Assembly (NCBI GenBank): GCA_965242965.1
Contig: OZ251518.1
Coordinates: 2,304,001-2,368,000 of the forward strand
Reading direction: 5' to 3'
DNA length: 64,000 nt
Origin: Candidatus Poribacteria bacterium
GTDB taxonomy: Bacteria > Poribacteria > WGA-4E > WGA-3G
Below, one piece after another: positions 2,760 to 52,076 of this stretch. Each line of letters opens with the position of its first letter. Position 1 is the first letter of the stretch. Under the pieces are notes generated by a model. That model made no database searches. It had not been told where the DNA came from and was given only the letters and a program-made list of their open reading frames with translations. The position numbers were made by a program, and so were the translations under genes.

Positions 2760-3433
2760 GAGGGGGTTTCATAAATCGCTCAACAAGGGGCCGTTTTTTT
2801 TCCATAGGGCGGGGCCCTCGGATGCCACACGCGCATCCGAGAGGGTTTCCCCCGCGAGCGGTGAGAGAAATGCCGATGACACCGTAGCGCGGGGGCCTGT
2901 CCCCCGCGATGCCTGTCGTCAAGAGGGCATCTTAGGTCCTTTAGGACCTACATGTCTATAGAAAAACGTATCGGCCCATGTCAAGGTCCTTTAGGTCCTT
3001 AATAAAAACACGCGCGGCATATTAAAAACTATTAAGGACCTAAAGGACCTTAGCGTTCTTCGCGGGCGCGCATGCTATAGACATTCAGGACCTAAAGGAC
3101 CTGAAGAGAACGAGTGTCGTTCTTAACCGGAGCGCGGGGGCCTGTCCCCCGCGAGCGTTGGATTGCACGAACGATGGCGAGGGACAGGCCCTCGCCCTAC
3201 GGTAAAACGTGGCCACCTCCGTAGGTCAAGATCGCCTGATCTTGACCCGTTCGTGTCCCCCGCGATCGCTGCATGGCGAGGGACAGGCCCTCGCCCTACG
3301 GTAACCCGGGGCGTTTTTTACCGTCGACCCGTTCGGGATCAGGCGATCCCGAACTACGGTCTCTCGCATGCGCGATGCATCGAGACCGGGAGGGCTCTCC
3401 TACCGGGAAGACATTGATTTATGAAACACCCTC
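2760..3433. mobile_element. MITE-like composite element A (TIRs enclosing a REP mosaic)
   Basis: Starts GAGGGGGTTTCATAAAT, ends ATTTATGAAACACCCTC; flanks cattaaatt / tgttaaatt; interior made of GTAG palindromes. Confidence 0.8.
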
Positions 3434-3439
3434 TGTTAA

Positions 3440-3468
3440 ATTATACCACGCAGAAATACATTTGTCAA
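3440..3468 (-). promoter_or_regulatory. consensus sigma70 promoter firing into element A
   Basis: TTGACA-17 bp-TATAAT with TG extension. Confidence 0.75.
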
Positions 3469-3509
3469 GTTTTTCTTGCAACGCCCCAAGACGATTCAGG
3501 TTTCCCACA

Positions 3510-3968
3510 TCTGTAGTTTGCAATCGCTTGGGCGCAACCAGGTCAAGATCAGGCGATCTTGACCTACAGAGGTGGGACGCTCTCACGGCATCAGGAACAG
3601 CAGACATGCGAAGGAGTTAGAATGAGGGTGTTTCATAAATCGATGCACACCCGTAGGAGAGACCTCCCGGTCTCGATTCTGCCGGTAGGAGAGACCTCCC
3701 GGTCTCGATGTTCCCGTAGCGCGGGGGCCTGTCCCCCGCGAGCGTTGCATTGCGCGAGCGATGGCGAGGGACAGGCCCTCGCCCTACGGTGAAGTGCCGT
3801 TTTTTCCATGCGGTCCGTCGTGCTATAGACATTAAGGTCTTAACAGACCTTAACGGCATTTTGCGTCTATTGCGAATATCCAAACCGACACCGGGATTCC
3901 AAAGGATGTTGATTGCACAAATCTCCCTAATCCTGATAATCCTATAATCATGGAAATCCTGATTCAGA
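3510..3968. repeat. REP cluster / partial element B (left TIR at 3624) plus AATCCTG repeats (~3929-3968)
   Basis: GAGGGTGTTTCATAAAT at 3624, GTAGGAGAGACCTCCCGGTCTCGAT x2, other palindromes; no right TIR seen. Confidence 0.7.
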
Positions 3969-3992
3969 CAGAAGAAGGCAAGCGAACCCACA

Positions 3993-6900
3993 CTACACCT
4001 CCATCCCCGCATCCCGATATGTCTGCTCGATGAGCGCAATCTCCTCCGCCGACAACCCATACAGCCGATAGACGATGGCATCGATTTGCCGCTCCAACGC
4101 GCGAACGTTATCGCTGTCAGGAGCTGCCAAAATCTGCTCAACGAGACGAGAGAGCTCTGTTTTCTGCGCCGCTGTCCGATTCGCAATCGGCGCATGAGCC
4201 ATATACTGGCGAATGAATCGCAAGCCGCCACCTGCCCACGGATCGTTGAGATTCTGAAACTTATGCCGAGCATACCAATCAAAGACTCGGCTATTCAAAA
4301 TCGCAAGTAGCGAGAGGTCTGTCGTTGGTAAAACATAAGTCGTCTGCAAGCAAAGCGTGTTTGTGGTATCGTAGCACGCGCGCATCGACGAACTGATATC
4401 CGGATAGACAATTTTCGGTACTGTGAGCGCGTCATAGTAGGCGCACGAACGGAGTTCCCAATAAAATTTGCCTTTGTCCGCGCGGGCAATAAGCCGTTCT
4501 CTGTAACCACTTAGATGACGATGAACGGCCGGGTAGGTTTTGGCAAAAATCCGTTCTGCCTCTGCGTCGTCTTCTGCATCTGACCAGGGCCATTCTCTAT
4601 TCGCGCTGCTCGCTATCGTTATCAAATACTTATCTGCCCAATGTGCTTGCCATCTGCGGATATCGCGCCCGCGCAGCAAGGGTTTTATCAGTTCGCTGCT
4701 GTTAGAATCTTCAAAAGCCAGCTGCTGATAGACGTTCTCATCTATAATAAAAGCGTCGTTAAAGCCGGTTTTTATGCCAAAAAAGAGCTGCATCTCGCCA
4801 AGAGGAACGCCGGTGCCTTGCAATTTTCCAAGCAAAGCAATTGCATCAGGCGATGTCAATACCCATCCTTCCGCTGTTAATTGGGATGCTTGCATCAGGA
4901 ACAACTGCGTTTCAAACTCTTCGCGGACATCGAAATCCTCAGAGTTTTGCCTGAGGGTTGCAGCGCGAAAATGGTGCCCGGGCGCAGCCGAACCCTTTTC
5001 AACGAGCACGATGCACGTATCCACCGCTGCATCAAAAACCGAGACACTTCCGAAATCCAAGAAGGTCTGAAGCGACATCTCAGCGGAGAGGAATTGCCTG
5101 AGGTTTTTCCCATACCCACTCCGCATAAACTTGTTCGTGCAGATATAGGGTAAGATACCACCATCCCGCAGGAGCTCCGCGCCGCGCTTATAGAAATAGA
5201 CGCTGATGTCCGCCGTGCTGGCGAAAAAGTCCTCAAACTGCGTTTTTAACGCGGGCTTGAGCGCGCGAATCTTCTCGTGACGGATATACGGCGGATTGCC
5301 AATGACAACATCAAACCCATCTTGGATGCCGAACATTTCCTCGGCCTCAAACCACTCGACGGTGGCGTTCTGATTGTAGGGATGCCAGTGGGCGATTTTC
5401 TCGGTATCCGCGGCGGGCATGCCTATCGTCTCTAACTCAGCGGCTAACGCAGCGCGTAAGGCTTCGTCTTGTTTCTGGCAGGCGCGTTTTTGTCGGCGTG
5501 TCGTTGCATGAAAATGCCGCTCTCGGTTGTCGCGCAGTTTTCGTAATAAGTCTCGGGTGGCATCGCTCGTGAACGTCAAGTTGCCTGACAAGCCAATGAG
5601 CGTATTCGCCGCGAGGAAGCGCGTCTCCAAATTCGGCAAGGGACGAATGCCGAAGTTCGCCGCGTCGGCATCTGGTTCTTGCTCAATCGCCAGCGAGATG
5701 AAAAAGCGGAGTTTCGCAATCTGGCACGCCACCGGTTGGATGTCTATACCGTAAATGCAGTTATGGATGAGATATAACTTCCGACCGAAATCGGAATCGC
5801 GATAACGTTTGAATGTCTCATCAATTTCAAGGAGTTCTTCGCGTCGGGTGTCGTCATCGGTTGTATCAAAGGCGGCAGCGGCGCGCTGTTGGGCGCGTTC
5901 GCGTTGTAAACTTTCCCATCGGCGGTTATCGGCATCCAGTCGCCGCAGCACGAGGGTGAGTTTATGCAACAAGCCCATCGGAAACGCACCCGAGCCGACG
6001 GCAGGATCCAAGAGTTTGAGCCCGGAGATGGCGCGCACGAGGTTCTCTGTCTCATCGGCATCAAACCATTCGCTGGCATCGTCAAACGCCTGCGCATAGT
6101 CCAGCAGATAGCGGAGCCGTTCATCCCAGAACTTTGCATCGCCATCGGTTGGCGCGCATTTTTGTTTGAACACGGCGACGAGTGCCTCGTCTACCATGTA
6201 ATCAACGATATCCCGCGGCGTGTAGTAAGAACCGGTGGCTCTGCGCGCCGTCGATTGTGTTTCAGGGTTGTAGGCACCGAGGAGATTTTCAAACACCTTG
6301 CCGAGCAACTCGGGGTCTAACGCAACTTCCTGTTCCACCGGCGTGTTCTCCTCCACGGTGAACTTATAGTGCGAAAAGAGCGGGAAGAGGCCCGCGTCTT
6401 CGTCAAAGAATAACTTCGCGGGAACGTGGAGTCTCCATCGCGCGTTTTCGTCATCGGTGAAGCAATCAATGCGAAAGCCGCCGGCGCGCGTGCCCTCAAA
6501 TGTATCCAAGCATTCAAACAGCCCGCCGTTGACGAACGGCACCTGTTTGAGGTATGCCAGAAATGCATCAGGAGTGCGGAGCAAATCGGCATAGCGATAC
6601 TTGTTAGGATTGCGATGCGCGCTGCGATTACGGGTGCTGAAGGCGCGTTTGTCTATCGGTGTATTGAGCGTCGCGAAGAAGAGATTCTGCAGTATCGCCT
6701 GATAATAGTCGGATGTCTCCAGAGAGAACTCTTTGAGATGCGTCGCTGCGGCATCTTTCTCAAAGAGTGCTATCGGCACCAACTTCTTCTCTTTCAGGAA
6801 CCAGATAAAGAGTAGGCGGGTGATGAGGCGGATAACCTGAAGTTGCGGCGCATCGTCGGGCAAGCGGCATTCGGCGACGGCCCACTGATACCATTCATAC

Positions 6901-7607
6901 AACTCGCCGTAGAATTGGCGGTTGAGTGCCTCGGTGTTCAGAACGCCTTCCCACGCTTTGTGCAGCGTGTCAAAATTGTGAACATTGTGGGTTTGGACGA
7001 GGTTTTCTAGGGAGAGTTCTGTGAGGATGTCAAGATGCGCGCGGTGCGGTGCGCGCAAGTTGATGTCCTTAATGAGCGTGACTTTCTCCAGAATCTGCCT
7101 TGTGCCCCCTACAGCCGCAGGCGTTGCTGCCCGCCTATCCCATCGGCGATTGATAATCGCCAACGTCAGGCAGTGCCCGTAGTGGAACATTACCATGATG
7201 GGTTGCGGCATCTGCTGGTTAATAAAGCGCGTGATGTTGACGAGTTGTGTGCGCGTGTAGGCATCGCCGGACAATTTCAGGGCGGCGAAGAGGTAAGACT
7301 GCATCAGCGCATCGTCAATCGCGTGACTCGCGAACACCCCTTGTTGTGCGTGCATCTCTTCGTCGGTGACTTGGAAGAGGAGGTGAAATGCGTCCCAGTC
7401 GTCACTGCGCAGTTTATCGGCGGTGCTTTGGCGTTGCGCGGTGGCTGCTAGCAGTCGGCGTTTGCGTTCGGCATCGATGCCGGGGTTGCCGATTCTTCGG
7501 CTGTGGTAGCCGAGGGTGTTGAGGAGGCGCGTGCCGGCAGCGCGCAGCGGGAATTCGGCGAAGGTGCGGAGCGTCTGTTTAATTTGTTTTTTGAGTGCTT
7601 CTGACAT
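3993..7607 (-). CDS. Eco57I/type IIG-like N6-adenine DNA methyltransferase with C-terminal TaqI-like specificity domain
   Basis: LDPAVGSGAF (motif I), IGNPPY (motif IV); likely start MSEALKKQIK at 7607 because the upstream extension is repeat-derived. Confidence 0.9.
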   Translation of the reverse strand: MSEALKKQIKQTLRTFAEFPLRAAGTRLLNTLGYHSRRIGNPGIDAERKRRLLAATAQRQSTADKLRSDDWDAFHLLFQVTDEEMHAQQGVFASHAIDDALMQSYLFAALKLSGDAYTRTQLVNITRFINQQMPQPIMVMFHYGHCLTLAIINRRWDRRAATPAAVGGTRQILEKVTLIKDINLRAPHRAHLDILTELSLENLVQTHNVHNFDTLHKAWEGVLNTEALNRQFYGELYEWYQWAVAECRLPDDAPQLQVIRLITRLLFIWFLKEKKLVPIALFEKDAAATHLKEFSLETSDYYQAILQNLFFATLNTPIDKRAFSTRNRSAHRNPNKYRYADLLRTPDAFLAYLKQVPFVNGGLFECLDTFEGTRAGGFRIDCFTDDENARWRLHVPAKLFFDEDAGLFPLFSHYKFTVEENTPVEQEVALDPELLGKVFENLLGAYNPETQSTARRATGSYYTPRDIVDYMVDEALVAVFKQKCAPTDGDAKFWDERLRYLLDYAQAFDDASEWFDADETENLVRAISGLKLLDPAVGSGAFPMGLLHKLTLVLRRLDADNRRWESLQRERAQQRAAAAFDTTDDDTRREELLEIDETFKRYRDSDFGRKLYLIHNCIYGIDIQPVACQIAKLRFFISLAIEQEPDADAANFGIRPLPNLETRFLAANTLIGLSGNLTFTSDATRDLLRKLRDNRERHFHATTRRQKRACQKQDEALRAALAAELETIGMPAADTEKIAHWHPYNQNATVEWFEAEEMFGIQDGFDVVIGNPPYIRHEKIRALKPALKTQFEDFFASTADISVYFYKRGAELLRDGGILPYICTNKFMRSGYGKNLRQFLSAEMSLQTFLDFGSVSVFDAAVDTCIVLVEKGSAAPGHHFRAATLRQNSEDFDVREEFETQLFLMQASQLTAEGWVLTSPDAIALLGKLQGTGVPLGEMQLFFGIKTGFNDAFIIDENVYQQLAFEDSNSSELIKPLLRGRDIRRWQAHWADKYLITIASSANREWPWSDAEDDAEAERIFAKTYPAVHRHLSGYRERLIARADKGKFYWELRSCAYYDALTVPKIVYPDISSSMRACYDTTNTLCLQTTYVLPTTDLSLLAILNSRVFDWYARHKFQNLNDPWAGGGLRFIRQYMAHAPIANRTAAQKTELSRLVEQILAAPDSDNVRALERQIDAIVYRLYGLSAEEIALIEQTYRDAGMEV

Positions 7608-7631
7608 AATTTTCACCTGCAAGCAAATGAT

Positions 7632-7770
7632 GAGCAGGATTTCCAAGATTTAGCAAGATTTAGCAAGATTATAGTTTCTGACGCACCGACACCGCTGGGG
7701 CATGCCACAACCGCGTCGGTGCGTCAAAGCCCTAATCCTGGAAATCCTGGTAATCGTGATAATCCTGCTC
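7632..7770. repeat. AATCCTG/CAGGATT long hairpin element
   Basis: GAGCAGGATT...AATCCTGCTC ends with inner IR TGACGCACCGAC (7679) / GTCGGTGCGTCA (7715). Confidence 0.75.
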
Positions 7771-7835
7771 GAAGATCCCGCGTTTGGTTTGCCCTGACAA
7801 AAGCGGGTGCTCTTTCGCTACAGTTGGGGCTGATA

Positions 7836-10800
7836 TTAGGTAATGATGAGCCACGTGATGAGCTCAAACGCCGTTGTTTCCTGAATTTGGGTCTCGGCAG
7901 CCGGCAGCAGAAAATCGGCACTACGCTCAAGCTTGTCATTGACATGCCGGTTGTATTCGCCGCTGATGGCGTTGACACATGTTTGGATAAGCGCATCGTA
8001 GTGCTCCATGTCCTCGCCGTTGCGCGTCGTTTCGTTAAACCAGTGACAGAGTTCTTGATTCGGGCCCTCTTTCCCGATGCAGAGCGCGCTGAAGAACGCC
8101 AGAATCTGCTTTGGATTTGCGAAACCGATAGACACCTCGCCTGCCTTAGTGACATGAACGAGATAGTAAGGATGAATCGGGTTGAGTTTCTCGTTTTCCT
8201 TCGCCGTATCAGTCTGCCGCAGACAGAAGATAACCCCCGGTTCAATAGCCACGGGACTTCCATCGTGCGTTTGCGGTGCGGTGACGGCATATAAACCGAG
8301 TGGTGCGTCTCGGAGTTGCGCCTCATGTTCGCGGAAATAGTTGAGGAGTTGCGCCCGGAAGTCGTCCAACGTGAATTGATTGAGATTCAGGTTCTCCTCA
8401 ACATCCTCCATGTCAAGAATTTCGGTTTGCATGCGCTTGAGTTGTGCTTCGCGATAGGTAAGTTCGCCTTCGGCGATGCCAGGGTTTTGAGACGCGATGA
8501 GGTTATCGTCGCCGGTGCCGGCGAGATTGACAAGCACCATCCTCGCCTCAACACGCGATTTGAGGTTAATGTAGTCGTCCAATTCGGCTGTCGGCCAGAA
8601 ATTGACGAGTTGCACCTTATCGTTCAGGCTGCCGATTCTGTCAATGCGGCCGAAACGTTGAATAATGCGGACAGGATTCCAATGGATGTCGTAATTGACG
8701 AGGTAATCGCAATCCTGCAGATTTTGGCCCTCGGAGATACAATCGGTGGCGATGAGGAGTTCAATTTCCGGTTCCTGCGTATCGGCGCGCTCCCTAGATA
8801 TCGGCGAGAAATTCGTCAGAATGTCGTTGAACTCATTCCTCCCAAACGTGGCTTTGCTGCCGCTGCCGGTGACAACGGCACACTGAATGTTAAGTTGTTC
8901 GGTAGCCCATGCGTGGAGCGCATCGTAGAGGTAGTTGGCAGTATCGGCAAAAGCGGTGAAGACGAGCACTTTACTGTTGCGCTTCCCCTCTCTGTTCGTC
9001 GTAGGTTCTCGCACTTTCGCCTTGATGAGCCGCTTGAGCTCCGCTAACTTTGCATCTCTGTCCGCCGTAATTTGAACTGCGGCTTTATGCACGCCGGAAA
9101 GGGCAGCCTTATCTTCACGAAGATCTTGTAGCCACCCCCGCAAATCCAAGTGCTCATAACGATAGACGTGATTTCTGCCAGTCTGTATGAAGGCATCCAA
9201 CTCTTCGTCATTCTCCACCTCTTCTGCGCCAAGTTCTGATGGGCCGATAACATCTTCGCCGGTTTCCATTTGCCCGCCATGCAAGCGCGCGAGGATGTCA
9301 GTTTCAATGCCTTCAATTTTTTCCAGCGTGCGCGCCAATGTCTGGACGAAAGAGTAAACGCTACTCTCCAACCGTTTGAGGAAGTTCACCTTCATCATGC
9401 CGATGAGGTTGAATTCACGCTGCCGGATGCGTCCATCCGTATAATGGCGCAGGCATTCGGTGCGGATGTAACCCGATGGATTGAAAAGCGAGAGTTTATA
9501 GCCATCAATCTGGTTGCTAATGATAGCGTAGGCAGGGAACTTCCCGTGCAAATCTATGTCGGGATAAATCGATTGCGGTTTTGCGCGTTCAGGAAACCCG
9601 CCGATTTGCGCCATTGAATCGCTGTAGAAACTCTCAATATGCCGCCGCGAGCGCGCAATAGTGAGGGTGTCAAGCAGTTTCAAGAAGTCTGCGCCTAAGG
9701 TTTGCAATAAACCGCTTCCATGCTTGTCTACCGGCTGCAATCCTGCTGGTTCAGCCGTGCGCCGCGTCCGATAAACATGCGTTTCATCTTCGCCGCGCGA
9801 GGATGCCCACTCCTCAAATTGGCTTTGGGCATCTCGCAGCGTGCCGCGCAGACTCGGAATATCAATGGCACTGAAAGCGTCGTCTTTGTCCGCCGTGATG
9901 AGACAGATTTGATTCTGGAGTTCTAGCAGGCTATTGTTCACCGGGGTAGCCGAGAGCATCAACACCTGCGTTTTGCCGCCGCTCTGGATGATGTCCTCCA
10001 TGAGTTTATTATACCGGCTCTTCCGTTTGTCGGTACCGGCGGGCCGGTTTCGGAAGTGATGCGATTCGTCAATCACGACAAAATCGTAGGTATTCCAATC
10101 AAACTCTGCCAAGTCAATATGGCCCGACATTCCCCTCTCACGACTCAAGTCTGTGTGAGCGAGGACGGTGTAATGGAAGCCATCATTTTTTAACGGGTTG
10201 TGCCTATTGTTGAATTGCCACGGATACAGCGTCCAATTCTGCTCTAGTTTTTTTGGACACAGCACGAGCACGCGGGCTTCCTGCAACTCAAAATATTTGA
10301 TAATGGCGAGTGCCTCGTAGGTTTTGCCTAACCCGACGCTATCGGCGATGATACAGCCGTTATAGTCCCGAATTTTCTGGAGACACGCCAGCACCCCATC
10401 GCGTTGGAAGGGATAGAGTTTCTCCCAAATTTGGGTATCGCGAAGCCGCGTCTGCGCAGGGGTATCCTCACCTGTCGTCCTCTCCGACAAAAAGCGTTCA
10501 AAGACATGGTAGAGCGTCTTGAAGTAGATGAACTCGGGTGCCTTGTCGGTGTAGGCATTTTCAAGGTGCCGCAGCACCTCGGTTTTGACATCTTCAACCT
10601 GGTCTGACTCCCAGAGGTGATCAAACCACATTTTCAGGTCGCGGCAGTCATCTTTGCTGTCAACCTCAAGGTTGAGTTCAATGTTGCTGGCGTTCTCGCT
10701 TAATCCGAGCCCGCGCACCGTGAAGTTAGAGCTGCCGATGAGCGCGTCGTTTTCGGCACCGTTGTCAATGTAATACATTTTGCCGTGCAGAAAATTAGCG

Positions 10801-12816: not shown

Positions 12817-13148
12817 GGTAGGCGGGACATCCTTGTCCCGATAATTGCATCGAGACCAGGAGGGCTCTCCTACTGCATCCTCTGGGTAGGAGGGACATCC
12901 TTGTCCCGATAGGCGTTCGGGTAGGAGGGACATCCTTGTCCCGATAGGCGTTCGGGTAGGAGGGACATCCTTGTCCCGATAGAGGTATTGCATTGAGACC
13001 GGGAGGGCTCTCCTACTGCATCCTCTGGGTAGGAGGGACATCCTTGTCCCGATAGGCGTTCGGGTAGGCGGGACATCCTTGTCCCGATAATTGCATCGGG
13101 ACCGGGAGGGCTCTCCTACCGACGTTGAGCGAGTTATGAAACACCCTC
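12817..13148. repeat. REP array (six GTAGG(A/C)GGGACATCCTTGTCCCGAT units plus three opposed units) ending in a right TIR
   Basis: Units at 12818, 12886, 12921, 12956, 13029, 13064; TTATGAAACACCCTC ends at 13148. Confidence 0.85.
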
Positions 13149-13149
13149 A

Positions 13150-14658
13150 TTACACTTCACTTCGCACAAAAATCAGGAATGTCATCATAAACAAGACAAG
13201 GCTCGTCAGCAGCAAGAGCAGCACATCCGGCAACGCGCGCTTGGCATTTATCTCAATACCTCTCCGTTCAAAAGAGAACTGCGGCAGCGTGCTCCAATCC
13301 GCCTTGTCTTTGTCGGACAGGAACCATTCCCGCGCGCCGAACGCGTCTTTATCGTCATACCAGTTCAGCACCGTTTTCCGATATTGGCGCGCCGCGTCAA
13401 AAAAGTCGCGGATGCCGAGGAGCCCGGTGCCAGCCCAGGCTTGCGTTGCGGCATCATAACAACCGACAGGCGAGAGTTTCAGCAAAGTCCGCTTAAAATT
13501 CGCCTGCTGAACAAGCGTGTCTACCAACGCATCTTTCCGAATGAGCCACGCCCGTTCCGCCGTCTGAATCGTCAATGGCATGAGGAACCGGTGATAATGT
13601 TGGACGTGCGGCACAGCGGGTTGGTATTCTTCATCAATTTCTTTAAAGGCAAGCATTCTGGCATAAAGATAGATGAGCGTCTTCAAATCTGCAGGGTAAT
13701 CTTCATAAGCATACCCCCAATACCCATCAATATTAAACCGGTAGTCTTCCCCCGGAAAGGCATCCGCGGCTAGGAAGCGTTTCCTCTCCCGGTCAAACTC
13801 CTCCCAAACTTGTTTAATCTGGTTGAACGCAGAAACCGCACGTTCTTGCGGGACATCCGATGTCCTGATAGTCGCGAGGACTATGTTCGGATAGACGAGG
13901 ACGAGAAACCCCCAGACGAACATGGCGAGCATTAACGCCGTGCTGGTTCGATGTGTCACCGCCGAGATAAGCAATCCGATGAGATAGAATACCGACAAAT
14001 ATGCAATTGAAGCGAGGATTATCCCACCGATGCGCAGAAAATCGTCGGAACGCAACGAAATAGAAGCGGATGTCGTCAGCAAAATCAGCGCGAAGAGGAG
14101 GCTGATGACTAACGGGATAAGCAGACACGTCATCGCGCTAACGTATTTGGCGAGGAGAATGTGCGCACGGCTGAGCGGGTTCGTCAGCACGAGGCGCAGG
14201 GTGCCGCGTTCGCGTTCGCCTGCGAGTGCGTCATAGGCGAACATGAGTGCCATCAGGCTGAAGACTACCTCAAAAATAAAAACCAAGTCAATTGAGGAGA
14301 AAAGATTGAGGAACGGATTCTCGGAGCCGTTCATGCGTGCTTCCCACAGCGTCGGCACAATGTTATGCGCAATCCAGATTTCGTTGCCCAACCGTTTATC
14401 CAATCCGACGTTGAAGATGCTCAACGGATTCGGCGGCCGGTCAAGTTCCATTTCTCCCTCTGCATATATTGTTATTTCACGCAGTTCTTGCCGATGCGTT
14501 TTGACAGCGGTGTTGTAATCCGCCAATCGCCGTTCGTAATCCTTGATAAGCACCGCCGTGTTGGCGACGACTAACAATAACGTGCCAAGCAGTGCGGCGG
14601 CGAAGCGGAACGTCATCAGGTTGTCAAGCAGTTCGCGGCGGAGGAGTGTTGTGAACAT
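13150..14658 (-). CDS. ABC-2 type transporter permease subunit
   Basis: MFTTLLRREL start; YDALAGERERGTLRLVLTNP motif; paralog of the downstream gene. Confidence 0.85.
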   Translation of the reverse strand: MFTTLLRRELLDNLMTFRFAAALLGTLLLVVANTAVLIKDYERRLADYNTAVKTHRQELREITIYAEGEMELDRPPNPLSIFNVGLDKRLGNEIWIAHNIVPTLWEARMNGSENPFLNLFSSIDLVFIFEVVFSLMALMFAYDALAGERERGTLRLVLTNPLSRAHILLAKYVSAMTCLLIPLVISLLFALILLTTSASISLRSDDFLRIGGIILASIAYLSVFYLIGLLISAVTHRTSTALMLAMFVWGFLVLVYPNIVLATIRTSDVPQERAVSAFNQIKQVWEEFDRERKRFLAADAFPGEDYRFNIDGYWGYAYEDYPADLKTLIYLYARMLAFKEIDEEYQPAVPHVQHYHRFLMPLTIQTAERAWLIRKDALVDTLVQQANFKRTLLKLSPVGCYDAATQAWAGTGLLGIRDFFDAARQYRKTVLNWYDDKDAFGAREWFLSDKDKADWSTLPQFSFERRGIEINAKRALPDVLLLLLTSLVLFMMTFLIFVRSEV

Positions 14659-14689
14659 CGGTTTTCCTTGTTGTCTGTAGGATATATAT

Positions 14690-14981
14690 GACGGTGCTTC
14701 AGAACTCGTTTTCCCCAGTAGGAGAGACCTCCCGGTCTCGATGTTCCCGTAGCGCGGGGGCCCTCGGATGCCACACGCGCATCCGAGCGGGTTTCCCCCG
14801 CGAGGGCTCAAGAACCGTTTTTTTATCGTAGCGCGGGGGACAGGCCCCCGCGATCATTGGAATGCGCGTGCATGAACGATGGCGAGGGACAGGCCCTCGC
14901 CCTACGTGAACGGGAGGCGTTTTTTTCACCGCATCGCGGGTGCCTGTCCCCGCGACGTTGAGCAATTTATGAAACACCCTC
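14690..14981. mobile_element. MITE-like composite element D
   Basis: Degenerate left TIR GACGGTGCTTCAGAACTCG, right TIR TTATGAAACACCCTC; flanks atatatat / atatatag. Confidence 0.7.
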
Positions 14982-19457: not shown

Positions 19458-19975
19458 GAGGGGTTTCATATTTCGATGGCTTCCCGGTAGGAGAGACCTC
19501 CTGGTCTCGATGCATCCCCGTAGGAGAGACCTCGGGTTTCGATGTTCCCGTAGCGCGGGGGCCTGTCCCCCGCGATCTCCATCATCACGAGGTGGCGTTT
19601 TAGGTCCTTTAGGACCTACATGTCTATAGCAGCCCGTGTCGGCCCGTTTTCAAGGTCCTTTAGGTCCTTAATAGGAAAACACGCGGCACGGCAAAATCCA
19701 TTAAGGACCTAAAGGACCTTAGGGTTCGTCGCGGACGCGCGTGCTATAGACATTAAGGTCCTACGGACCTAAGAGACGTTTTTTCATCTGTAGTTTGTGA
19801 TCGCCTGATCACAAACGGGTCAGGATCAGGCGATCCTGACCTACAGGGTTGAGGCGATCTGCCAGCCAAACGCATGGCGAGGGACAGGCCCTCGCCCTAC
19901 GTGAAGGGGAAGCGTTTTTTCCACCGTAGCGCGGGGCCTGTCACCGCGCCGTTGAGCAATTTATGAAACACCCTC
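19458..19975. mobile_element. MITE-like composite element E
   Basis: GAGGGGTTTCATA...TTATGAAACACCCTC; flanks gtcttaaat / atcttaaat. Confidence 0.85.
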
Positions 19976-25330: not shown

Positions 25331-26029
25331 CAGGGGGTTTCATAAATCTGTGTAGGAGAGCCCTCCCGTTCTCAATACGAGCGATGCTCCCGTAGGAGAG
25401 ACCTCCCGGTCTCGATGCAATATGGCAGCGCGCCTACCGGGGCCGCGGCGGCAGAAAGCCCCTTCATCGTAGGGCGGTGGGAAAACCTGTCCCTCGCCAG
25501 TGTTCGCGCGCCAGGCCCTATAGGTCAGGCTCGCCTGATCCTGACCTGTTTGTGATCAGGCGAGCACAAACTACAGCGGGGGAAACACACATCGTGACGA
25601 TGGAGATCGCGGGGGAAACCCGCTCGGATGCGCGGATGGCATCCGAGGGCCCCCGCGCTACGATAAAAAACGGCGTGCGTTACCGTAAGGCGAGGGCCTG
25701 TCCCTCGCCATCGCTCGCGCAGCGAAAAAACGTCTCTTGTGCTCTTCAGGTCTGTAAGACCTGAATGTCTATAGCACGCGCACCCGCGATGAACGCTAAG
25801 GTCTGTAGGACCTTAATAGTTTTTGCCAGGGCCGCGCGTGTTTTTTATTAAGGACCTAAAGGACCTTGAAAAGGGACCGGCACGTTTTTCTATAGACATG
25901 TAGGTCCTACGGACCTAAAACGCCACCGCTTGACGATGGAGATCGCGGGGGACAGGCCCCGCGCTACGGGAACATCGAGACCAGGAGGTCTCTCCTACGG
26001 GTGTGCATCGAAATACGACCCTCCCCCTC
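25331..26029. mobile_element. MITE-like composite element F
   Basis: CAGGGGGTTTCATAAAT...CCCCTC; exact 8-bp flanking repeat AACTATCT at 25323-25330 and 26030-26037. Confidence 0.8.
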
Positions 26030-45407: not shown

Positions 45408-46313
45408 ATGCTCAAACCGGATTTTTTGAAACAACTTCACCCTTACTCTATCCGCTCGCAACGCCGCTTCCGAGGCACATTGAAGGGCGAACGCAGCAGC
45501 CTTAACCGCGGAACGGGCATCGAATTCGCAGATTATCGTGCATACGAACTCGGCGATGATCTTCGGTATGTTGACTGGAACGTTTACGCGCGCTTGGAGA
45601 AGCCGTTCATCAAACTCTTCCAAGCAGACGAAGAACTGCCTGTCTCGTTGCTCATCGATAACAGCCGCTCGATGCAGTTTGGGAATCCGACAAAGTTGAC
45701 ATGCGCCAAGCAGCTCGCCGCCGCGCTAGCCTATATCGCAGTGGCACACAACGACAGCGTCGCCGTTTATACGTTCGCGGAACGTCTCGTATCAGCTTTG
45801 CCGCCGACATCGGGCACATCGCAATTCTCACGCATCACGAAAGCACTCTCAGCAATTGAAGCACAAGCAGGAATCGAAGGAACCCGAATCACTGACTGCC
45901 TCAGACATCTCGCTACACATCAACCGTGGCCAGGTATCGCTGTCATCTTCTCCGATTTTTTTGCGGCGGACGGTTACGCATCCGGCTTCAAGTTATTGGC
46001 GGGACGCGGGTTTTCGCTAATGGCAATTCAACTGATGAGCCCGGAAGAAACAGACCCGAGTCACACTAGCACGGTAACCCACGGGAACCAGTGGCAATTA
46101 GAAGATGCCGAGACAGGCGAAACGCGAGCCATTACGATGAATGAAGATACACTCGCGCAATATCGGCATGAACACAAGGCTTTTTGTGACGACTTGCAAC
46201 GCTTCTGTGCGAAACGGGGTATCGGCTACGCGCGTTTCAATTGCGGCATGCCGATAGAAACGTTCGTTTTGCAGGAGCTGCATCGCGTCGGTTTCCTTCA
46301 GCGGAAACGGTAA
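45408..46313 (+). CDS. DUF58 / vWA-like protein
   Basis: GIEFADYRAYELGDDLRYVDWN, DNSRSM, FSDFF. Confidence 0.88.
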   Translation: MLKPDFLKQLHPYSIRSQRRFRGTLKGERSSLNRGTGIEFADYRAYELGDDLRYVDWNVYARLEKPFIKLFQADEELPVSLLIDNSRSMQFGNPTKLTCAKQLAAALAYIAVAHNDSVAVYTFAERLVSALPPTSGTSQFSRITKALSAIEAQAGIEGTRITDCLRHLATHQPWPGIAVIFSDFFAADGYASGFKLLAGRGFSLMAIQLMSPEETDPSHTSTVTHGNQWQLEDAETGETRAITMNEDTLAQYRHEHKAFCDDLQRFCAKRGIGYARFNCGMPIETFVLQELHRVGFLQRKR

Positions 46314-46357
46314 TATAATCGTAAGGCAAGGAAAACCTGGCCACGGAGAAACAAACC

Positions 46358-46906
46358 ATGCACAAACAGAATTTGACATCAGACATTCGCATTGAACTCA
46401 TCCAAGGCGACATCACCAAAGCGCAGGTAGATGCCATCGTGAACGCCGCGAACAGGCAACTTATCGGCGGAGGCGGTGTGGACGGAGCCATTCGGCGTGC
46501 GGGTGGAGACGCAATAGAAACCGCATGCGCCCGGATTCGTGAACGCCAAGGCGGCGTGGAAACCGGTGCCGCCGTAATCACTCCCGGTGGCAACCTTCCG
46601 GCAAAGTATGTTATTCACACCGCCGGGCCCGTGTGGGAAGGCGGCACAGCCGGCGAACCCGACTTGCTCGCCAGTTGTTATCGCGAGAGTCTCCAACTCG
46701 CTGTGGAAAACGGCGTGCAGACTATCGCCTTTCCGTCCATTAGCACCGGTATTTACGGATATCCGCCAGAGAAAGCGGCGGCTGTCGCACTGCGCACCGT
46801 GAAAAAATTTGTCGCCAGCGGCGGTTCAGCACCGACATGCATCCAATTTATTCTATTTGACGATGCCACTTATCAGTGTTACGCCGACGCGTTAACTTCG
46901 CTTTAA
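46358..46906 (+). CDS. macro-domain O-acetyl-ADP-ribose deacetylase (YmdB-like)
   Basis: GDIT, IVNAAN...[26 protein letters not shown]. Confidence 0.92.
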
Positions 46907-46999
46907 ACAACATTCCGTAGGGCGGTGGGAAAACCTGTCCCTCGCCATTGAGGAGCACTCAAAATTCAAGGCAACAGATTTAGCCGAACTTCACTCATC

Positions 47000-48184
47000 T
47001 TGCCCATCTATATTCCCGCGTTTCTCCTCGCGACAGGCGGCGGCATTGTTTCCCCGACGCTCTCGATTTATGTGAAATCGTTTGAGTTGTCCTATACGCT
47101 GACAATGATTGTCCTCGCGGTGGGGGTGATTGGAAATATCCCGGCAGGCTTTTTCGTGGAACGGCTTGGGCGCAAAGCGTCCATGTTGCTCGGCTTAAGC
47201 ATGATAGGCGCGTCAACGGTTGGGATGGGTATCGCGCAGAATTTCGTCCAACTCATCGGCGTGCAGCTGCTTGGCGGTATCGGCAACGCGTTTTGGATGC
47301 TCGCCCGCCACGCCTATATGACAGAAGTCATTCCGATTGCGAAGCGCGGCAGAGCGATTGCGCTGTTCGGCGGTGTGAACCGGATGGGCACCTTCGCCGG
47401 GCAGTTCGGTGCGCTTTTCCTCGGCACGAATCTCCGCATTCCGTTCTTCGTATACGCAGGCATTGTGCTGCTGAACCTTGTCCTCTGTTTTTTCTTTATT
47501 CCCTATATGCCGCCTGCACTCTCGCACGCCACTGGGAATAAAATGCCTTACGTCCAGCGGTTGTCTCATGTTTTCCATGTCCATCGGCGCATCCTCGCTA
47601 CGGCGGGGCTCGGCCAGGTTTTCGTGCAAACGATTCGCCGGGGCGCGCACCTCATTATTCCGCTCTACGGCGACGAAGTGGTAGGACTCACAACGCAAGA
47701 AGTGCGCTGGACGGTGATGATATCTTCGGCGGTGGATATGTCCATGTTTCCCATCGCCGGATTTATGATGGACAGGTTCGGCAGACGCTATGCCACGGTG
47801 CCGGGGATAGCTATCTTCGCCACAGGGATGGCACTCATGCCGCTTACCCGAACGTTCGCGGGGTTACTGGCGGCAGCCATTTTCATGCGCATCGGTAATG
47901 GCATCGCATCCGGCACGATGATGACGCTCGGCGCAGATTTAGCACCCCGCGAAGACTTGGGTGTTGGCAGCGGCACCCCCAAAACACCGCTTGTCACGAA
48001 GGGAGAATTTCTCGGTTTGTGGCGGCTCACCGGCGATTTCGGCGGCGCGGCGGGCCCTGTCGTTGTCGGCAATGTGGCAGATCTACTCGGGTTGAACTAT
48101 GCGGGATATGCATTAGGAGGGCTCGGTTATCTCGCCGTGGGGATTTTCTTGCGGCTGGTGCCGGAAACGTTGGAAAAAGAATAA
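47000..48184 (+). CDS. MFS transporter (start uncertain)
   Basis: ERLGRK and DRFGRR motif-A loops, about 12 TM segments. Confidence 0.85.
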   Translation: MPIYIPAFLLATGGGIVSPTLSIYVKSFELSYTLTMIVLAVGVIGNIPAGFFVERLGRKASMLLGLSMIGASTVGMGIAQNFVQLIGVQLLGGIGNAFWMLARHAYMTEVIPIAKRGRAIALFGGVNRMGTFAGQFGALFLGTNLRIPFFVYAGIVLLNLVLCFFFIPYMPPALSHATGNKMPYVQRLSHVFHVHRRILATAGLGQVFVQTIRRGAHLIIPLYGDEVVGLTTQEVRWTVMISSAVDMSMFPIAGFMMDRFGRRYATVPGIAIFATGMALMPLTRTFAGLLAAAIFMRIGNGIASGTMMTLGADLAPREDLGVGSGTPKTPLVTKGEFLGLWRLTGDFGGAAGPVVVGNVADLLGLNYAGYALGGLGYLAVGIFLRLVPETLEKE

Positions 48185-48198
48185 TACCAAATTAATCT

Positions 48199-48500
48199 GA
48201 GGGTGTTTCATAACTCCGTTTCAGTATTTATCCCCCCTTGCGGGGCGGACGAATACCGATAGAAAAGAGAGGAGGGCGCGCATCGGGCCCACCTCTGTAG
48301 TTCGGGAGCGCCCGCTCCCGAACGGGTCAGGATCAGGCGATCCTGACCTACAGGGATGAGGAGGTCTGCTAGCCAAACGCATGGCGAGGGACAGGCCCTC
48401 GCCCTACGGTGAGGGTGGCGTTTTTTCGTAGCGCGGGGGCCCTCGGATGCCATCCGCGCATCCGAGCGGGTTTCCCCCGCGAGCGTTGGAGTGCGCGTGG
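48199..48500. repeat. partial composite element G (left TIR plus REP mosaic)
   Basis: GAGGGTGTTTCATAAC at 48199 followed by several palindrome families; no right TIR. Confidence 0.7.
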
Positions 48501-48517
48501 GTATCAGCGCAAACTAT

Positions 48518-49504
48518 CTACCCCCAAGTTTCAACGCGATAATCTACGTTTGCCCGGAGGTGATAGCGTTCCCAAAGCCGACGTTCCAACGGCTCCAAAG
48601 CGAGTTTGGACAACTCAATTCCCACCCAGTGCCGATTGAGTGCTTGTGCCGCATCTAACGCCGTGCCGCAGCCACAGAACGGATCGAAGACAATGTCGCC
48701 GGGATTGGAGGAGGCTTTAATGATGCGTTCTACCAACTTTACCGGTTTCTGCGTCGGGTAGCCGAGTCGCTCCTTATCATTTCTAAAGAGCGGTTTGATG
48801 TCATCTTCCGGCATCAACCCGGTATCCACCCACCAATCGCGCATCTGTGTATCCCGATATTTCTCAAGTTTATCCCGTTGCACGCCGAGGCGTTGCCCGC
48901 TCGCCGTATGCGGTTCCGGTAAGGTGGGAACGTAACTCTTTTGCGTCTGTGGATGAAAACGGTTGTTTGGGCTTTTTGTGTAAAAAAGGATAATGTCGTG
49001 CTTGCGCGCAAATTGACTGGGCAGCTGCGGCGTGCCACCGGTTTTGTATCCCCAGACAATCTCGTTTCTGAAATTCGGCGCGCCAAAGATCACATCCATC
49101 ATCACTTTCAGATAGTGGCTGGCGTGTGCATCACAGTGCAGGTAAACGCTCCCATCGGGAGTCAGCAGCCGCCAAATCTCCGCCAAGCGCGGTGCCATGA
49201 AGGCGAGATACGCGCGCATCGATGCCGCGGTTAAGAAGGCGTTGAAACCGTTTAGGCAGTGCGATAGATTGTCCATCGTTTCAACGAGTTCGGGGTGTCT
49301 GCCATCGTAGTGGAGGACAGCGGCTTGATTGTCGCGCGCAGCGGCATTCCATCGCCACGTGTCTTCAAAGGCTTTCTGTTGCCGAGACGTGGTATAGTCG
49401 CGGCCGCTGTTGTAGGGAGGATCGAGATAGCAGAGGTGGTAAGTGCCGCCCTCCATTTCTCGCATCACCTTGAGGTTATCTCCGAAATAGAGTGCGTTTT
49501 GCAT
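48518..49504 (-). CDS. orphan beta-class N4/N6 DNA methyltransferase
   Basis: LYFGDNL, DPPYNS, YPTQKP, DPFCGCGT. Confidence 0.9.
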   Translation of the reverse strand: MQNALYFGDNLKVMREMEGGTYHLCYLDPPYNSGRDYTTSRQQKAFEDTWRWNAAARDNQAAVLHYDGRHPELVETMDNLSHCLNGFNAFLTAASMRAYLAFMAPRLAEIWRLLTPDGSVYLHCDAHASHYLKVMMDVIFGAPNFRNEIVWGYKTGGTPQLPSQFARKHDIILFYTKSPNNRFHPQTQKSYVPTLPEPHTASGQRLGVQRDKLEKYRDTQMRDWWVDTGLMPEDDIKPLFRNDKERLGYPTQKPVKLVERIIKASSNPGDIVFDPFCGCGTALDAAQALNRHWVGIELSKLALEPLERRLWERYHLRANVDYRVETWG

Positions 49505-49525
49505 GAACGTTTCCCTGAATAAAAA

Positions 49526-49611
49526 TGCCGGGAAAGGGACTCGAACCCTTACGCGCGTAATGCACACTAGAACCTGAATCTAGCCTGTCTACCAAATTCC
49601 AGCATCCCGGC
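49526..49611 (-). tRNA. tRNA-Leu(CAG)
   Basis: TT-CAG-GT loop, long variable arm; promoter TTGACA-17-TATACT at 49664-49692. Confidence 0.92.
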
Positions 49612-49839
49612 AGATGTCTCGTCACAATAGGGCGAAGCCCCAACAAAATGACACGATGTATATAGTATACCCAAAATTTTGCGATTTGTCAAATTAAAAT
49701 TGCAAAAAATAAGATTAAACTTGCAATTTCGCCGAAGATCACATATAATTTTAAGAGACAGGAACACCTCGCAAGAGTCGCGGTTTCAAATCGCGTCTAC
49801 AAGAAACGACAGAATTTACGTATCAGAAGGAGTGAAAAT

Positions 49840-50598
49840 ATGACGTTAAGGCTAATTTTCTGCGTCACGCTCGCGCTCGGTATCAGCATCGCTCACCAGA
49901 GTCCCGCCGAAATCGACCCGGGTAAAATTGTCGGGATATGGCTACTTGACGAGGGCAAGGGCGATGTCGCCGAAGACGCATCCGAAAACGGGTTTGACGG
50001 CCAGATTACCAAAGGCGAATGGGTGGACGGCGAAGTTGATGGCGCGGCAGAAATCAAGAAGGGCGGCACCGTCACTATCCCTGTCGGCGAAGGCGCGGTA
50101 ACGGATAAGATGAGCCTCATCTTGTGGATTCAGTTTACCGAGATCGGCGGGCAACAAAACTACTTTTCCATCTGGGATCAGAGCGACAACCGCTATGTCC
50201 CGTATAAAAACGGTGGAAACTTGCTCCGCAGTTGGACGAATTCTTGGGACATCAGCAGCGGCGTAACCGTGAAGGCTGGCACGTGGTATCACGTCGCGAA
50301 CACCTACGATGGCAAAACGGCGAGTATCTACGTCAACGGTGAGGAGAAAATCGCGCAAGGCGTGCCGAAGTTCCAGCTCCAAGAACAAGACCAGACGGCG
50401 TGGCTCGCCACCGATAAAGGCACCGGGTTCCTCTCCGCCTGTATCATGGACGAAGTGGGACTCTTCAACGATGCCCTCTCCGAAGACGAAATTCAGGCGA
50501 TTATGAACGACGGCATCTGGCATACGGCGTTTGCCGTGGAACCGTCGGATAAGTTGCCGGTGTTGTGGGGCAAATTGAAGCAGCGAAACTCCCAATAA
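49840..50598 (+). CDS. secreted LamG-domain protein with C-terminal AVEPSDKLPVLWGKLK motif
   Basis: Signal peptide; WLLDEG, WYHVANTYDG..IYVNG, MDEVGLFNDALS. Confidence 0.85.
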   Translation: MTLRLIFCVTLALGISIAHQSPAEIDPGKIVGIWLLDEGKGDVAEDASENGFDGQITKGEWVDGEVDGAAEIKKGGTVTIPVGEGAVTDKMSLILWIQFTEIGGQQNYFSIWDQSDNRYVPYKNGGNLLRSWTNSWDISSGVTVKAGTWYHVANTYDGKTASIYVNGEEKIAQGVPKFQLQEQDQTAWLATDKGTGFLSACIMDEVGLFNDALSEDEIQAIMNDGIWHTAFAVEPSDKLPVLWGKLKQRNSQ

Positions 50599-50808
50599 GC
50601 GCGGTTTCAAACCGCGCCTACGGGAACAACAGAAACGCCTACGGTAGGCGCGGTTTCTAACCGTGCCTACGGTAAGGGAATGGGTAGGCGAGACCTCCTG
50701 GTCTCGATGCCTTTTTGGGTTTCTAACCGTGCCTACGGTAAGGGAATGGGTAGGAGAGCCCTCCTGGTCTCGATGCCCTCTAGGGTTTCAAACCGTGCCT
50801 ACGGTAAA
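50599..50808. repeat. REP cluster (GGCGCGGTTTCAAACCGCGCCTAC family) with tandem units
   Basis: AACCGYGCCTACGG x4 alternating with GTAGG..AG.C..CCTGGTCTCGATGCC x2. Confidence 0.75.
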
Positions 50809-50823
50809 GGAACGGATTAGCGT

Positions 50824-51738
50824 ATGAACAACCGATACCTTGACGAATTGAACAAAAGAATCCGGTTAAACCCCCGAAACGCCGAGGCGTATCGCGAGAG
50901 GGGGGATGTCTACCGATACCTACAAGAATTTGACAAAGCTATCATTGACTATAGTAAAGCCATCAAACTTGAACCGGGGGATGCCAAAACCTATCGCAAC
51001 CGGGGTTACGCTTATAGCAACGCCGAAAAGTATGACAGGGCTATCGCAGATTACAACGAGGCACTCAAAATCGACCCGGGATACGCCGCGGCTTACTGCG
51101 ACCGGGGTTTCGCCTACGACGAAAAAGGCGAGTATGATAGGGCGATTGCGGACTACGACGAAGCCATCCGCATCGATGCGGAATACGCTATGGCTTACTG
51201 CAACCGGGGCTACGCTTACAGACGCAAAGAAGAACTTGACCAGGCTATTGCGGATTACTCAAAGGCGATTGAACTCGATGCTGAATATGCGCTCGCCTAC
51301 CGGAACCGCGGCTCTGCTTACCGACACATGGGCGAGCATGACAAGGCGATTGCGGACTACAACGAAGCCATCCGCATCAGGCCCGACTACTTCCTCGCTT
51401 ACCTCAACCGGGGGCATGTCTACACCGAAAAACGCGAGTATGACAAGGCACTTGCCGATTTCGACGAAGCGGTCCGCCTGGGTCCCGAAGATTCCGTTAT
51501 TTACTGCCAAAGGGGCATCGCTTATCGGCATCTCGGCGAGTATGACAAAGCGATTGCGGACTTCAATGAAGCGATCCGATTGGAGTATGACTACGCGCAT
51601 GTCTACTACGAACGCGGTGTCGTCCACTACAAAAAAGGCGATTATGAGAAGGCATTGATGGATTTAGGCGAGGCGATTCGTTTGAATCATGCGTTTGCGG
51701 ATGCGTTTGCGGCGGAGTATGCTGCGAATTTTTCGTAG
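50824..51738 (+). CDS. tetratricopeptide-repeat protein (about 8 TPRs)
   Basis: 34-aa periodic AY.NRG.AY...GEYDKAIADY.EAI units. Confidence 0.92.
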   Translation: MNNRYLDELNKRIRLNPRNAEAYRERGDVYRYLQEFDKAIIDYSKAIKLEPGDAKTYRNRGYAYSNAEKYDRAIADYNEALKIDPGYAAAYCDRGFAYDEKGEYDRAIADYDEAIRIDAEYAMAYCNRGYAYRRKEELDQAIADYSKAIELDAEYALAYRNRGSAYRHMGEHDKAIADYNEAIRIRPDYFLAYLNRGHVYTEKREYDKALADFDEAVRLGPEDSVIYCQRGIAYRHLGEYDKAIADFNEAIRLEYDYAHVYYERGVVHYKKGDYEKALMDLGEAIRLNHAFADAFAAEYAANFS

Positions 51739-51786
51739 TTGCGAATTTCAATTCGCAACTACGCGCGAAATGTGTTGGCATTAATT

Positions 51787-52076
51787 GCGGGTGTTTCATA
51801 TTTCGATTTCTTCCCGGTAGGAGAGACCTCGGGTCTCGATGTTCCCGTAGCGCGGGGGCCTGTCCCCCGCGAGCTCTATCGTCCCGATGTGTGTTCCCCC
51901 ATTGTAGTTTGTGATCGCCTGATCACAAACAGGTTAGGATCAGGCGAGCCTGACTTACAGGGCCTGGCGCGCGAGCGATGGCGAGGGACAGGCCCTCGCC
52001 CTACGGTGAAGTGCCGTTTTTTTCCCGTAGCGCGGGGGCTGTCGCCCCGACGTTGAGCGATTTAGGAAACACCCTC
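51787..52076. mobile_element. MITE-like composite element H
   Basis: GCGGGTGTTTCATA...TTAGGAAACACCCTC, TTAAT on both flanks. Confidence 0.7.

Follow-up and report, generated by a model that had tools for sequence, protein, structure and literature searches.

Miniature transposable elements with inverted repeats (MITEs), bacterial interspersed mosaic elements (BIMEs) and the systems in which hairpin-forming doublets of repetitive extragenic palindromes (REPs), termed REPINs, are accompanied by a REP-associated tyrosine transposase (RAYT) have each been described in bacteria (PMC10969869; this source and those cited below are used in excerpt). MITEs derived from an insertion sequence (IS) include Correia/NEMIS, RUP, Nezha and MITEAba12 (PMC3733652), BIMEs are known from enterobacteria (PMC2817692), and REPIN/RAYT systems from Pseudomonas (PMC3116915, PMC3337134). 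Here we describe a 64,000-nucleotide stretch (the window, G000:C1:2304001-2368000) of the 5.70-Mb, two-contig genome of a Candidatus Poribacteria bacterium (G000), in which shells with terminal inverted repeats (TIRs) enclose mosaics of several REP families, named A-F. Very probably these elements are orphan MITEs of an IS982-like, DDE-type IS of ~1.1 kb, and their cargo is a BIME-like mosaic of REPs and REPINs that was moved as a unit.

The 15-mer GAGGGTGTTTCATAA, which forms the end of the shells and was used as query with limits of <=1, <=2 or <=3 mismatches, has 10 matches in the window at <=2 mismatches against a mean of 0.11 in shuffled sequence, and 0 of 100 shuffles reached 10. All 10 lie where the original prediction, made from the letters of the window, had placed them, and the five complete and three one-ended elements (the latter at 3624, 13148 and 48199) that it had listed are present on direct reading (Table 1). 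The AT-rich flanking repeats claimed for the complete elements read as 7/8, 7/8, 8/8, 8/8 and 5/8 matches in the order of the table, and the interiors do hold both GTAG palindromes and CTATAGACAT/AGGTCCT units. The window was also said to be devoid of a transposase gene; this is borne out, and the genome as a whole likewise yielded none that is intact.

Genome-wide, G000 gives 989 matches to the end when <=2 mismatches are allowed and 1124 when <=3 are. Conservation extends inward to ~17-21 bp (...CATAA(A/C)TCG.T), and directly outside the ends lies a palindromic AT-rich target, A-n-T-T-A-A-n-T, whose logo has a GC content of 16%. The ends are strongly paired in the convergent sense: neighbours less than 1500 bp apart make up 314 of 390 +/- successions, as compared with 63/389 for -/+, 34/170 for +/+ and 32/173 for -/-. 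We defined successive +/- ends within this distance as convergent pairs (314 pairs, 69-1500 bp); their lengths have a mode of 200-300 bp and range broadly from 69 to ~900 bp, with few above 900 bp and only 3/314, very short and REP-free, below 100 bp. Approximately 33 further pairs have one decayed end, and the remaining ends are one-ended. The flanks of the 314 pairs were compared with those of shuffled partners, a control in which the target preference is retained. Perfect direct repeats of 8 bp were found in 66 pairs and of 9 bp in 27, versus 0.54 and 0.16 with shuffled partners, and other repeat lengths or offsets are almost absent. When the better of 8 and 9 bp is taken, there are 93 perfect target-site duplications (TSDs) and 54 with one mismatch, versus 0.6 and 4.6 expected, so that 147/314 pairs have a TSD with <=1 mismatch where ~5 are expected. 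The tabulation of ends and flanks that had been proposed as a check hence gives systematic pairing, and duplications far above AT-rich chance. Convergent inverted ends, a TSD of fixed length, small size and the absence of a transposase gene are the marks of a MITE, and all of them are found here; the shells are true DDE-type MITEs. The subterminal sequences, classed into types, combine asymmetrically: T1+T2 accounts for 70 pairs, T1+T4 for 51, T4+T4 for 40 and T1+T1 for only 6, as is expected from a few master copies.

Two sister species of the same genus, G001 and G002, with genes ~80-90% identical to those of G000, allow the insertion sites to be compared; the assembly of G001 is fragmentary and 86% complete. 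For the element at 19458-19975 the site in G002 is empty and reads ...GCATTATCTTAAATACTGGG..., with a single TCTTAAAT and no element, and G001 too is without the element at this locus. Reciprocally, a 198-bp element of G001 (C48) corresponds to a single AGATAAGACT in G000. For the element at 51787 the homology to G001 and G002 breaks off at 51785/51786, which is 1-2 bp short of its left border, with the right side not syntenic, and at 2760-3433 the homology to G001 restarts 3 bp past 3433, with the left side rearranged. The search for empty sites in relatives thus gives one clean case in the window and one of a G001 element empty in G000. The original prediction was to fall if ends proved unpaired, if flanking matches stayed at AT-rich chance or if there were no empty sites; on all three points the outcome favours real transposition. 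The relatives searched are a sample, within which copies of the end at <=1 mismatch number 807 in G000, 8 in G001, 1 in G002 and 0-15 in 38 others, a few of these relatives carrying the end at contig ends. The MITE burst is species-specific.

Is there an autonomous element with the same ends? A 1108-bp element of this kind was found at G024:C222, with a single frame interrupted by one TGA. With this frame as query, 39 of 121 genomes of the order gave matches at E <= 1e-20, up to 24 per genome and many of them open frames of 340-360 aa; no match at this threshold was obtained in G000 or G002. Nine of the loci fetched carry elements that are 1102-1124 bp long and have these ends as their borders, the ends being exactly GAGGGTGTTTCATAAAT...ATTTATGAAACACCCTC in eight of them (1107-1124 bp) and having 1-2 mismatches in the ninth (L041, 1102 bp). 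The TSDs of the IS are likewise 8 or 9 bp long in AT-rich targets, perfect at 6/9 loci and 7/8 at a seventh. Each of these elements has one open frame, and the frame read at L032 encodes a 337-aa protein that matches Pfam DDE_Tnp_1_3 (PF13612) with 35.2 bits, above the cut-off of 27. The best of its three NCBIfam hits is IS982 (NF033520), with 54.8 bits against a cut-off of 130, and at such a score the family assignment is loose. The IS982 family, which we take from the ISfinder definition to comprise elements of ~1 kb with one open reading frame (ORF), TIRs that start with AC and a duplication of 3-9 bp, agrees with the partner IS in length, in the single ORF (L032) and in the 8/9-bp duplication; the ends of the partner start with GAGGG, not AC. 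Judged by these profile scores, the partner transposase is an IS4/IS5-clan DDE enzyme nearest to IS982 rather than a certified member of that family. In other genera belonging to this family the autonomous IS survives intact; its ends are identical and its duplications, too, measure 8/9 bp. The proposed search for such an IS therefore succeeded in related genera, with no intact copy in G000.

In G000 itself, tblastn with the IS transposase recovers only remnants. A degraded 370-bp transposase fragment abuts a perfect end at C1:2371347-2371746, 3.4 kb to the right of the window. This relic is the sole substantial trace of the autonomous element in the genome, and N-terminal scraps stand beside three other ends. 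Pfam searches of G000 with IS256, DDE_Tnp_1 and ISL3 gave no hit, and no multi-copy IS was found in it by self-BLAST, which returned only 11 rows of high-scoring segment pairs (HSPs) >=96% identical over >=300 bp. Two candidates from the latter were inspected and rejected, their ORFs resembling by eye a sigma factor and a tyrosinase-type protein and not transposases. Long end pairs (900 bp to 5 or 12 kb) were likewise considered as autonomous copies and rejected. Those whose flanks match contain ordinary genes; the ORF of the pair at 54311-57212 resembles an ankyrin-repeat protein by eye. Two perfect 8-mer flank matches in this set of long pairs are roughly the number expected by chance. The IS and the MITEs have only ~17 bp in common, and IS-derived subterminal sequence is kept by a few short copies and by the relic. 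The link between transposase and MITEs rests on identical ends and duplication length. Since only a relic of the IS is left in G000, the elements are orphan MITEs, and with the autonomous IS lost the shells are probably now immobile.

In another genome, G006, six contigs (C13, C21, C27, C32, C54 and C108) carry a variant of the end, GAGGGTGGTTCATAA, at a distance of 120-560 bp from a contig end, and a transposase fragment with 63% identity is found at C21:4-537 of the same assembly. This suggests that a related multi-copy IS is breaking that assembly.

The cargo of the shells is set off sharply from its surroundings. REP coverage, scored with seven REP consensus sequences at <=3 mismatches, amounts to 28.4% within the 314 shells, falls to 2.5% over the first 100 bp beyond the ends and is ~1% further out, and the 93 copies with perfect TSDs have the same profile (28.5% inside). 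Because the coverage is sharply bounded by the ends, the REPs belong to the element and not to its neighbourhood. At least 617 of the 1124 ends have a REP within ~12-40 bp. REPs cover 199,539 bases or 3.5% of the genome, and the GTAG-tagged palindromes A-F, which are extragenic and of 20-30 bp, give 423-2775 hits each at <=3 mismatches, the per-family counts being approximate and inflated because palindromes can match both strands. Whole arrangements recur. As a collinear partner we counted a copy at another locus that aligns in one piece over >=90% of the longer element, and 138/314 elements have one, in families of 76, 15, 8, 5, 5, 4... members. In the 15-member family the order is end, C REP, F or B REP, linker, 55-bp REPIN, linker, A REP, T-run, B REP, end. 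The element at 19458-19975 has a full-length paralogue at C1:2759562-2760100, 87% identical and with its own TSD ACTTAACC, and that at 51787-52076 has one at C1:4063092-4063382, 88.7% identical and with the TSD AGGTAATTT. The REP mosaics are thus cargo that was copied end to end as whole units.

A separate repeat family is nested in the MITEs, a palindromic element of ~180 bp of the form CTCTTMAGGTCCnnAGGACCTnCATGTCTATAG ... CTATAGACATnnAGGTCCTAnGGACCTnAAGAG. It has at least 284 copies with a uniform inner spacing of 130-140 bp, 61 of them in paired shells and 166 near an end; in the window it lies at ~2926-3108, 19598-19775 and 25725-25925, with a half unit at ~3830-3865.

With regard to enzymes that could act on the cargo, G000 holds one RAYT, at C1:3147499-3147990 (NF047646 score of 120 bits, cut-off 80; detected with Pfam, tblastn and NCBIfam), which is flanked on both sides by REP arrays of the GTAGTTCGGGAGCGCCCGCTCCCGAAC type (E) and not by MITE ends. 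The same searches found no RAYT for families A, B, C and F in G000. The idea that each palindrome family would have RAYT genes beside it therefore holds for the E-type REPs and fails for these four. In G002 the RAYT sits among C-type REPs. The longest frame over the RAYT of G000 (L008 4500-5606; C1:3147499-3148605) reaches 368 aa only through read-through of the REP array upstream, which is translated as SGAGAPEL-type repeats; the true RAYT comprises approximately the last 165 aa. A second Y1_Tnp hit was rejected as a RAYT; it belongs to a pair of IS605 type (L007 4158-5712; C1:3124157-3125711) in which a tnpA broken by two TGA lies beside a 408-aa tnpB-like ORF.

The REPINs are CTCT|GTAG...CTAC|AGAG doublets of the D/E type. 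Of the 700 copies, 671 are exactly 55 bp long. Paired shells hold 210, a further 226 sit on the inner side of a solo end and no more than 900 bp from it, and the other 264 occur elsewhere. The varied contexts of the last group argue for independent movement of the doublet as well. The counts of D/E REPs are 547/559 for G000, 44/21 for G001 and 1/0 for G002, from which it follows that they expanded in the same lineage as the MITE. At L026 (G001:C48) 2010-2095, a lone REP (GTAGGTTGCGATCGCCTGATCGCAAC) stands between direct duplications of ~30 bp of host sequence, which is unusual for a REP insertion.

Table 1. MITE ends, elements and loop hairpins in the window; coordinates are those of the window.
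Feature	Position	Strand	Ends	Flanks (left/right)	Cargo and remarks
End matches	2760+, 3419-, 3624+, 13134-, 14967-, 19961-, 25331+, 48199+, 51787+, 52062-				
Complete MITE, 674 bp	2760..3433		GAGGGgGTTTCATAA / TTATGAAACACCCTC; left 1 mismatch, right perfect	ATTAAATT/GTTAAATT	B, A, D/E and C REPs; hairpin nested in a REP loop; ~180-bp AGGTCCT/CTATAGACAT palindromic unit
One-ended MITE	3624..3870	+	3624-3638		two C, B and A REPs and half of an AGGTCT/CTATAGACAT unit; second end absent on direct reading
One-ended MITE	12818..13148	-	13134-13148		F/C REP array before the end (REP matches over 12818-13121); left limit approximate
Complete MITE, 292 bp	14690..14981		left GACGGTGCTTCAGAA, decayed, 3 mismatches; right perfect	ATATATAT/ATATATAG	C, B (loop hairpin nested), B, A and B REPs; 15 genomic HSPs span >=80% of the element
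Complete MITE, 518 bp	19458..19975		left one base short (GAGGG-GTTTCATA); right perfect	TCTTAAAT on both sides	two C and B REPs, ~180-bp palindromic unit, 55-bp REPIN, A and B REPs
Complete MITE, 699 bp	25331..26029		left 2 mismatches; right badly decayed	AACTATCT on both sides	duplication intact despite the decayed right end; 2 genomic HSPs span >=80% of the element
One-ended MITE	48199..48510	+			T2-type subterminal region, REPIN, A, B with nested hairpin; marks left edge of a 1.3-kb segment not present in G001/G002
Complete MITE, 290 bp	51787..52076		2 and 1 mismatches		belongs to the 15-copy collinear family
25-nt loop hairpin	2817-2841, 14763-14787, 25623-25647, 48442-48466				

The segment that begins at the one-ended MITE at 48199 extends over 48192-49480 of the window. 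It carries a gene for an N6_N4 DNA methylase (48518-49567, minus strand; Pfam 2.3e-45), which has many paralogues of 73-75% identity in G001 and G002, some at contig ends, and which is adjoined by a putative tRNA gene (~49528-49612, minus strand), judged by eye. Spurious ORFs arise in REP-laden shells, for example at 13150-14811 and 51739-52056 of the window.

How might these elements have come about? Very probably the MITEs are non-coding derivatives of a ~1.1-kb IS encoding the 337-aa DDE transposase, which recognises the ~17-bp TIR GAGGGTGTTTCATAAAT and inserts at AT-rich AnTTAAnT sites with duplication of 8 or 9 bp. The family expanded to ~1100 ends in this species, and the autonomous IS was lost with only the relic left behind. 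Beyond the TIR, the interior does not derive from the IS and is made of GTAG REPs of families A, B, C and F, the 55-bp D/E REPINs and two further small palindromic units, and the DDE enzyme copied whole multi-REP arrangements end to end to new sites. The mosaics may first have arisen, and later varied, through RAYT-driven insertion of REPs and REPINs, through recombination between REPs or through both, and the REPs presumably multiplied as hitchhikers in the MITE burst. When the burst, the loss of the IS and the REPIN expansion took place, and in which order, is placed here by conjecture.

Several observations weigh against this account. The mobilisation of the MITEs in G000 is historical, since no intact transposase was found in G000, in the 86% complete G001 or in G002, the latter two being without a match to the query, and the score under NF033520 noted above leaves the tie to IS982 loose. 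Three or more TSD mismatches are seen in 136/314 pairs. There are 496 solo ends, and an exact 8-mer repeat of their flank occurs on the inner side in 39 and on the outer side in 6. The copies within families are only ~79% alike (median identity 79%, maximum 96%), and for 176/314 elements a collinear partner of full length is lacking. Only 1/5 complete elements of the window could be matched to an empty site that is clean on both sides, the others lying at loci rearranged in G001/G002. At one orthologous site where both G000 and G001 have an element, the two share the target and ~90 bp on the right, yet the interiors measure ~480 versus 863 bp and differ by several module-size blocks, which means that carried cargo is not the whole story. 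Finally, 83% of REP-covered bases lie outside paired shells, and G002, with one copy of the end, nevertheless matches the C-type REP segment of the window at many places and an A-type segment at some. Most REPs being outside the shells, and REPs being present in G002 without a MITE burst, REPs do not depend on the shells.

One could imagine instead that simple MITEs came first and acted as a sink, REPs and REPINs entering the resident shells singly by RAYT-driven insertion beside REPs already there, with the mosaics being growth after insertion. Copies of one family do differ by the swap of a module at one position (F versus B REP) and by the presence or absence of a 25-nt hairpin in the loop of the A/B REP, the interiors at the site shared by G000 and G001 differ by module-size indels, REPINs occur in many non-MITE contexts and so move on their own, and the length of the elements rises weakly with the decay of their ends (rho 0.18, p 0.002). 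However, decay of the TSD shows no significant correlation with length (rho 0.08, p 0.18), REPs already abound in the copies whose TSDs are perfect (28.5% coverage at a median length of 346 bp), very short REP-free copies are rare, and 138/314 elements share whole collinear mosaics between different loci. In addition, the search for precise REPIN-empty paralogous sites yielded no clean case among 693 REPIN sites: joined flanks matched elsewhere for 91/693, and the 14 best of these reflect REP-to-REP similarity with different linkers. We hence consider accretion of this kind unlikely as the source of the mosaics. It is quite unlikely, too, that the shells form repeatedly whenever two inverted ends, such as a solo end and a neighbouring one, bracket a REP cluster and the transposase moves all that lies between, as in composite or 'pack' elements. 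Such capture would explain the variety in length and order, and it is consistent with the 496 solo ends that adjoin REP arrays, with the many combinations of end types (including T4+T4 in 40 pairs), with lengths from 69 to ~900 bp and with the mere ~17 bp held in common with the IS. Against it, the dominant 76-member family and the asymmetric pairing of ends point to few master copies, and among the long pairs (>=900 bp) with a TSD of <=1 mismatch the one translated ORF is ankyrin-repeat-like and the two perfect 8-mers are near chance.

Some remodelling after insertion is likely, with RAYT insertion, recombination between REPs or repair-associated template switching as possible mechanisms. The 25-nt hairpin CTCGGATGCCACACGCGCATCCGAG (followed by CGGGTTT), which lies inside A/B REP loops as a hairpin within a hairpin and has 588 genomic sites, behaves like a tiny REP-loop-specific insertion or a convertible REP variant.

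A reading in which the 15-mer is no transposon end at all, and serves either in regulation or as an inverted repeat belonging to a TIRtron-like element of a tyrosine transposase, appears extremely improbable. The motif has an outward-reading ATG and is located in intergenic DNA, and inverted-repeat families flanking tyrosine-transposase genes have been described (PMC3733652, in the excerpt consulted); however, the 8/9-bp duplications, the empty site and the intact DDE IS copies with the same ends all speak for transposition, and the RAYT gene is flanked by REPs and not by the 15-mer repeat.

The original prediction held that a DDE-mobilised shell carries cargo diversified by HUH enzymes. The shell is well founded in TSDs, an empty site and a matching IS, and the cargo was copied in units. 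Its diversification by HUH enzymes is as yet conjecture, with one RAYT tied to one REP type and no clean case from the search for REPIN-empty sites. Similarly, the term 'MITE/REP hybrid system' is apt as far as REP mosaics do lie inside the shells; a dedicated system is not indicated, given the REP-covered bases outside the shells and the REPs of G002 without a burst. As the REPs are independent of the shells and the shells need only their ends, we read the arrangement as nested selfish DNA with hitchhiking, and nested parasitism of this kind describes the data better than a dedicated two-enzyme system. A bolder proposal is that REPs and REPINs use the DDE-type MITE as a vehicle, a second, RAYT-free route of amplification, with the shell possibly dependent on subterminal REP hairpins, so that the whole would be a second-order replicator served by two enzymes. 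This is possible, though we regard it as doubtful. If true, it could explain the abundance of REP families that lack a RAYT here, as well as the joint expansion of D/E REPINs and the MITE in this species.

Whole multi-REP mosaics have demonstrably been copied by a different enzyme class (DDE) to hundreds of sites in one species and not in its sisters, which bears on the assembly and dispersal of REP clusters and of BIME-like mosaics. The genome is also a natural system for studying REP hitchhiking, the effect of hairpin-rich cargo on DDE transposition and the origin of 3.5% REP DNA. For annotation, the spurious ORFs created by REP-laden shells, such as the 368-aa frame before the RAYT gene, deserve attention.

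How, then, do these elements compare with known systems? They resemble the IS-derived MITEs in being short and non-coding, with TIRs in the range of 15-30 bp, a fixed-length TSD, high copy number and mobilisation in trans by an IS with the same ends. They differ from them in that the interior is a mosaic of REPs, REPINs and palindromes instead of a deleted IS or a simple spacer, and in that ~1100 ends occur in a genome where the cognate transposase was not found. As in BIMEs, REP types form a mosaic in alternating orientation and are joined by recurring linker motifs, but here the mosaic is bounded by TIRs and duplications; to our knowledge BIMEs are bounded by neither, nor is any DDE enzyme known to move them.

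The GTAG palindromes, the uniform inverted doublets (55 bp here) and the single-copy RAYT flanked by its own REP type are shared with the REPIN/RAYT systems of Pseudomonas. Unlike in those systems, ~62% of the doublets (436/700) are inside or beside DDE-type shells, and four further REP families are without a RAYT in the genome. REPINs are not known to move other than via their single-copy RAYT. In the full-text literature, with supplements and subscription journals outside its scope, we found no account of REP mosaics packaged or amplified inside a DDE-type MITE.

Elements of IS type are reportedly also drawn to REPs, IS1397 and ISKpn1 being said to target them. ISPpu9 is an IS that inserts into REPs (PMC12288879, in excerpt). 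Such DDE/DEDD-type elements are likewise physically associated with REPs; however, they insert into REPs, whereas here it is the transposon that encloses the REPs, and its target is no REP but an AT-rich 8-mer. Plant Pack-MULEs are non-autonomous shells with captured DNA. A MITE of Porphyromonas gingivalis carries a minisatellite (PMC4596501, in excerpt). In both, as in the elements described here, a non-autonomous shell holds foreign DNA, repeated or captured; what distinguishes the present MITEs from them is that the cargo consists of mobile palindromes handled by a different class of enzyme.

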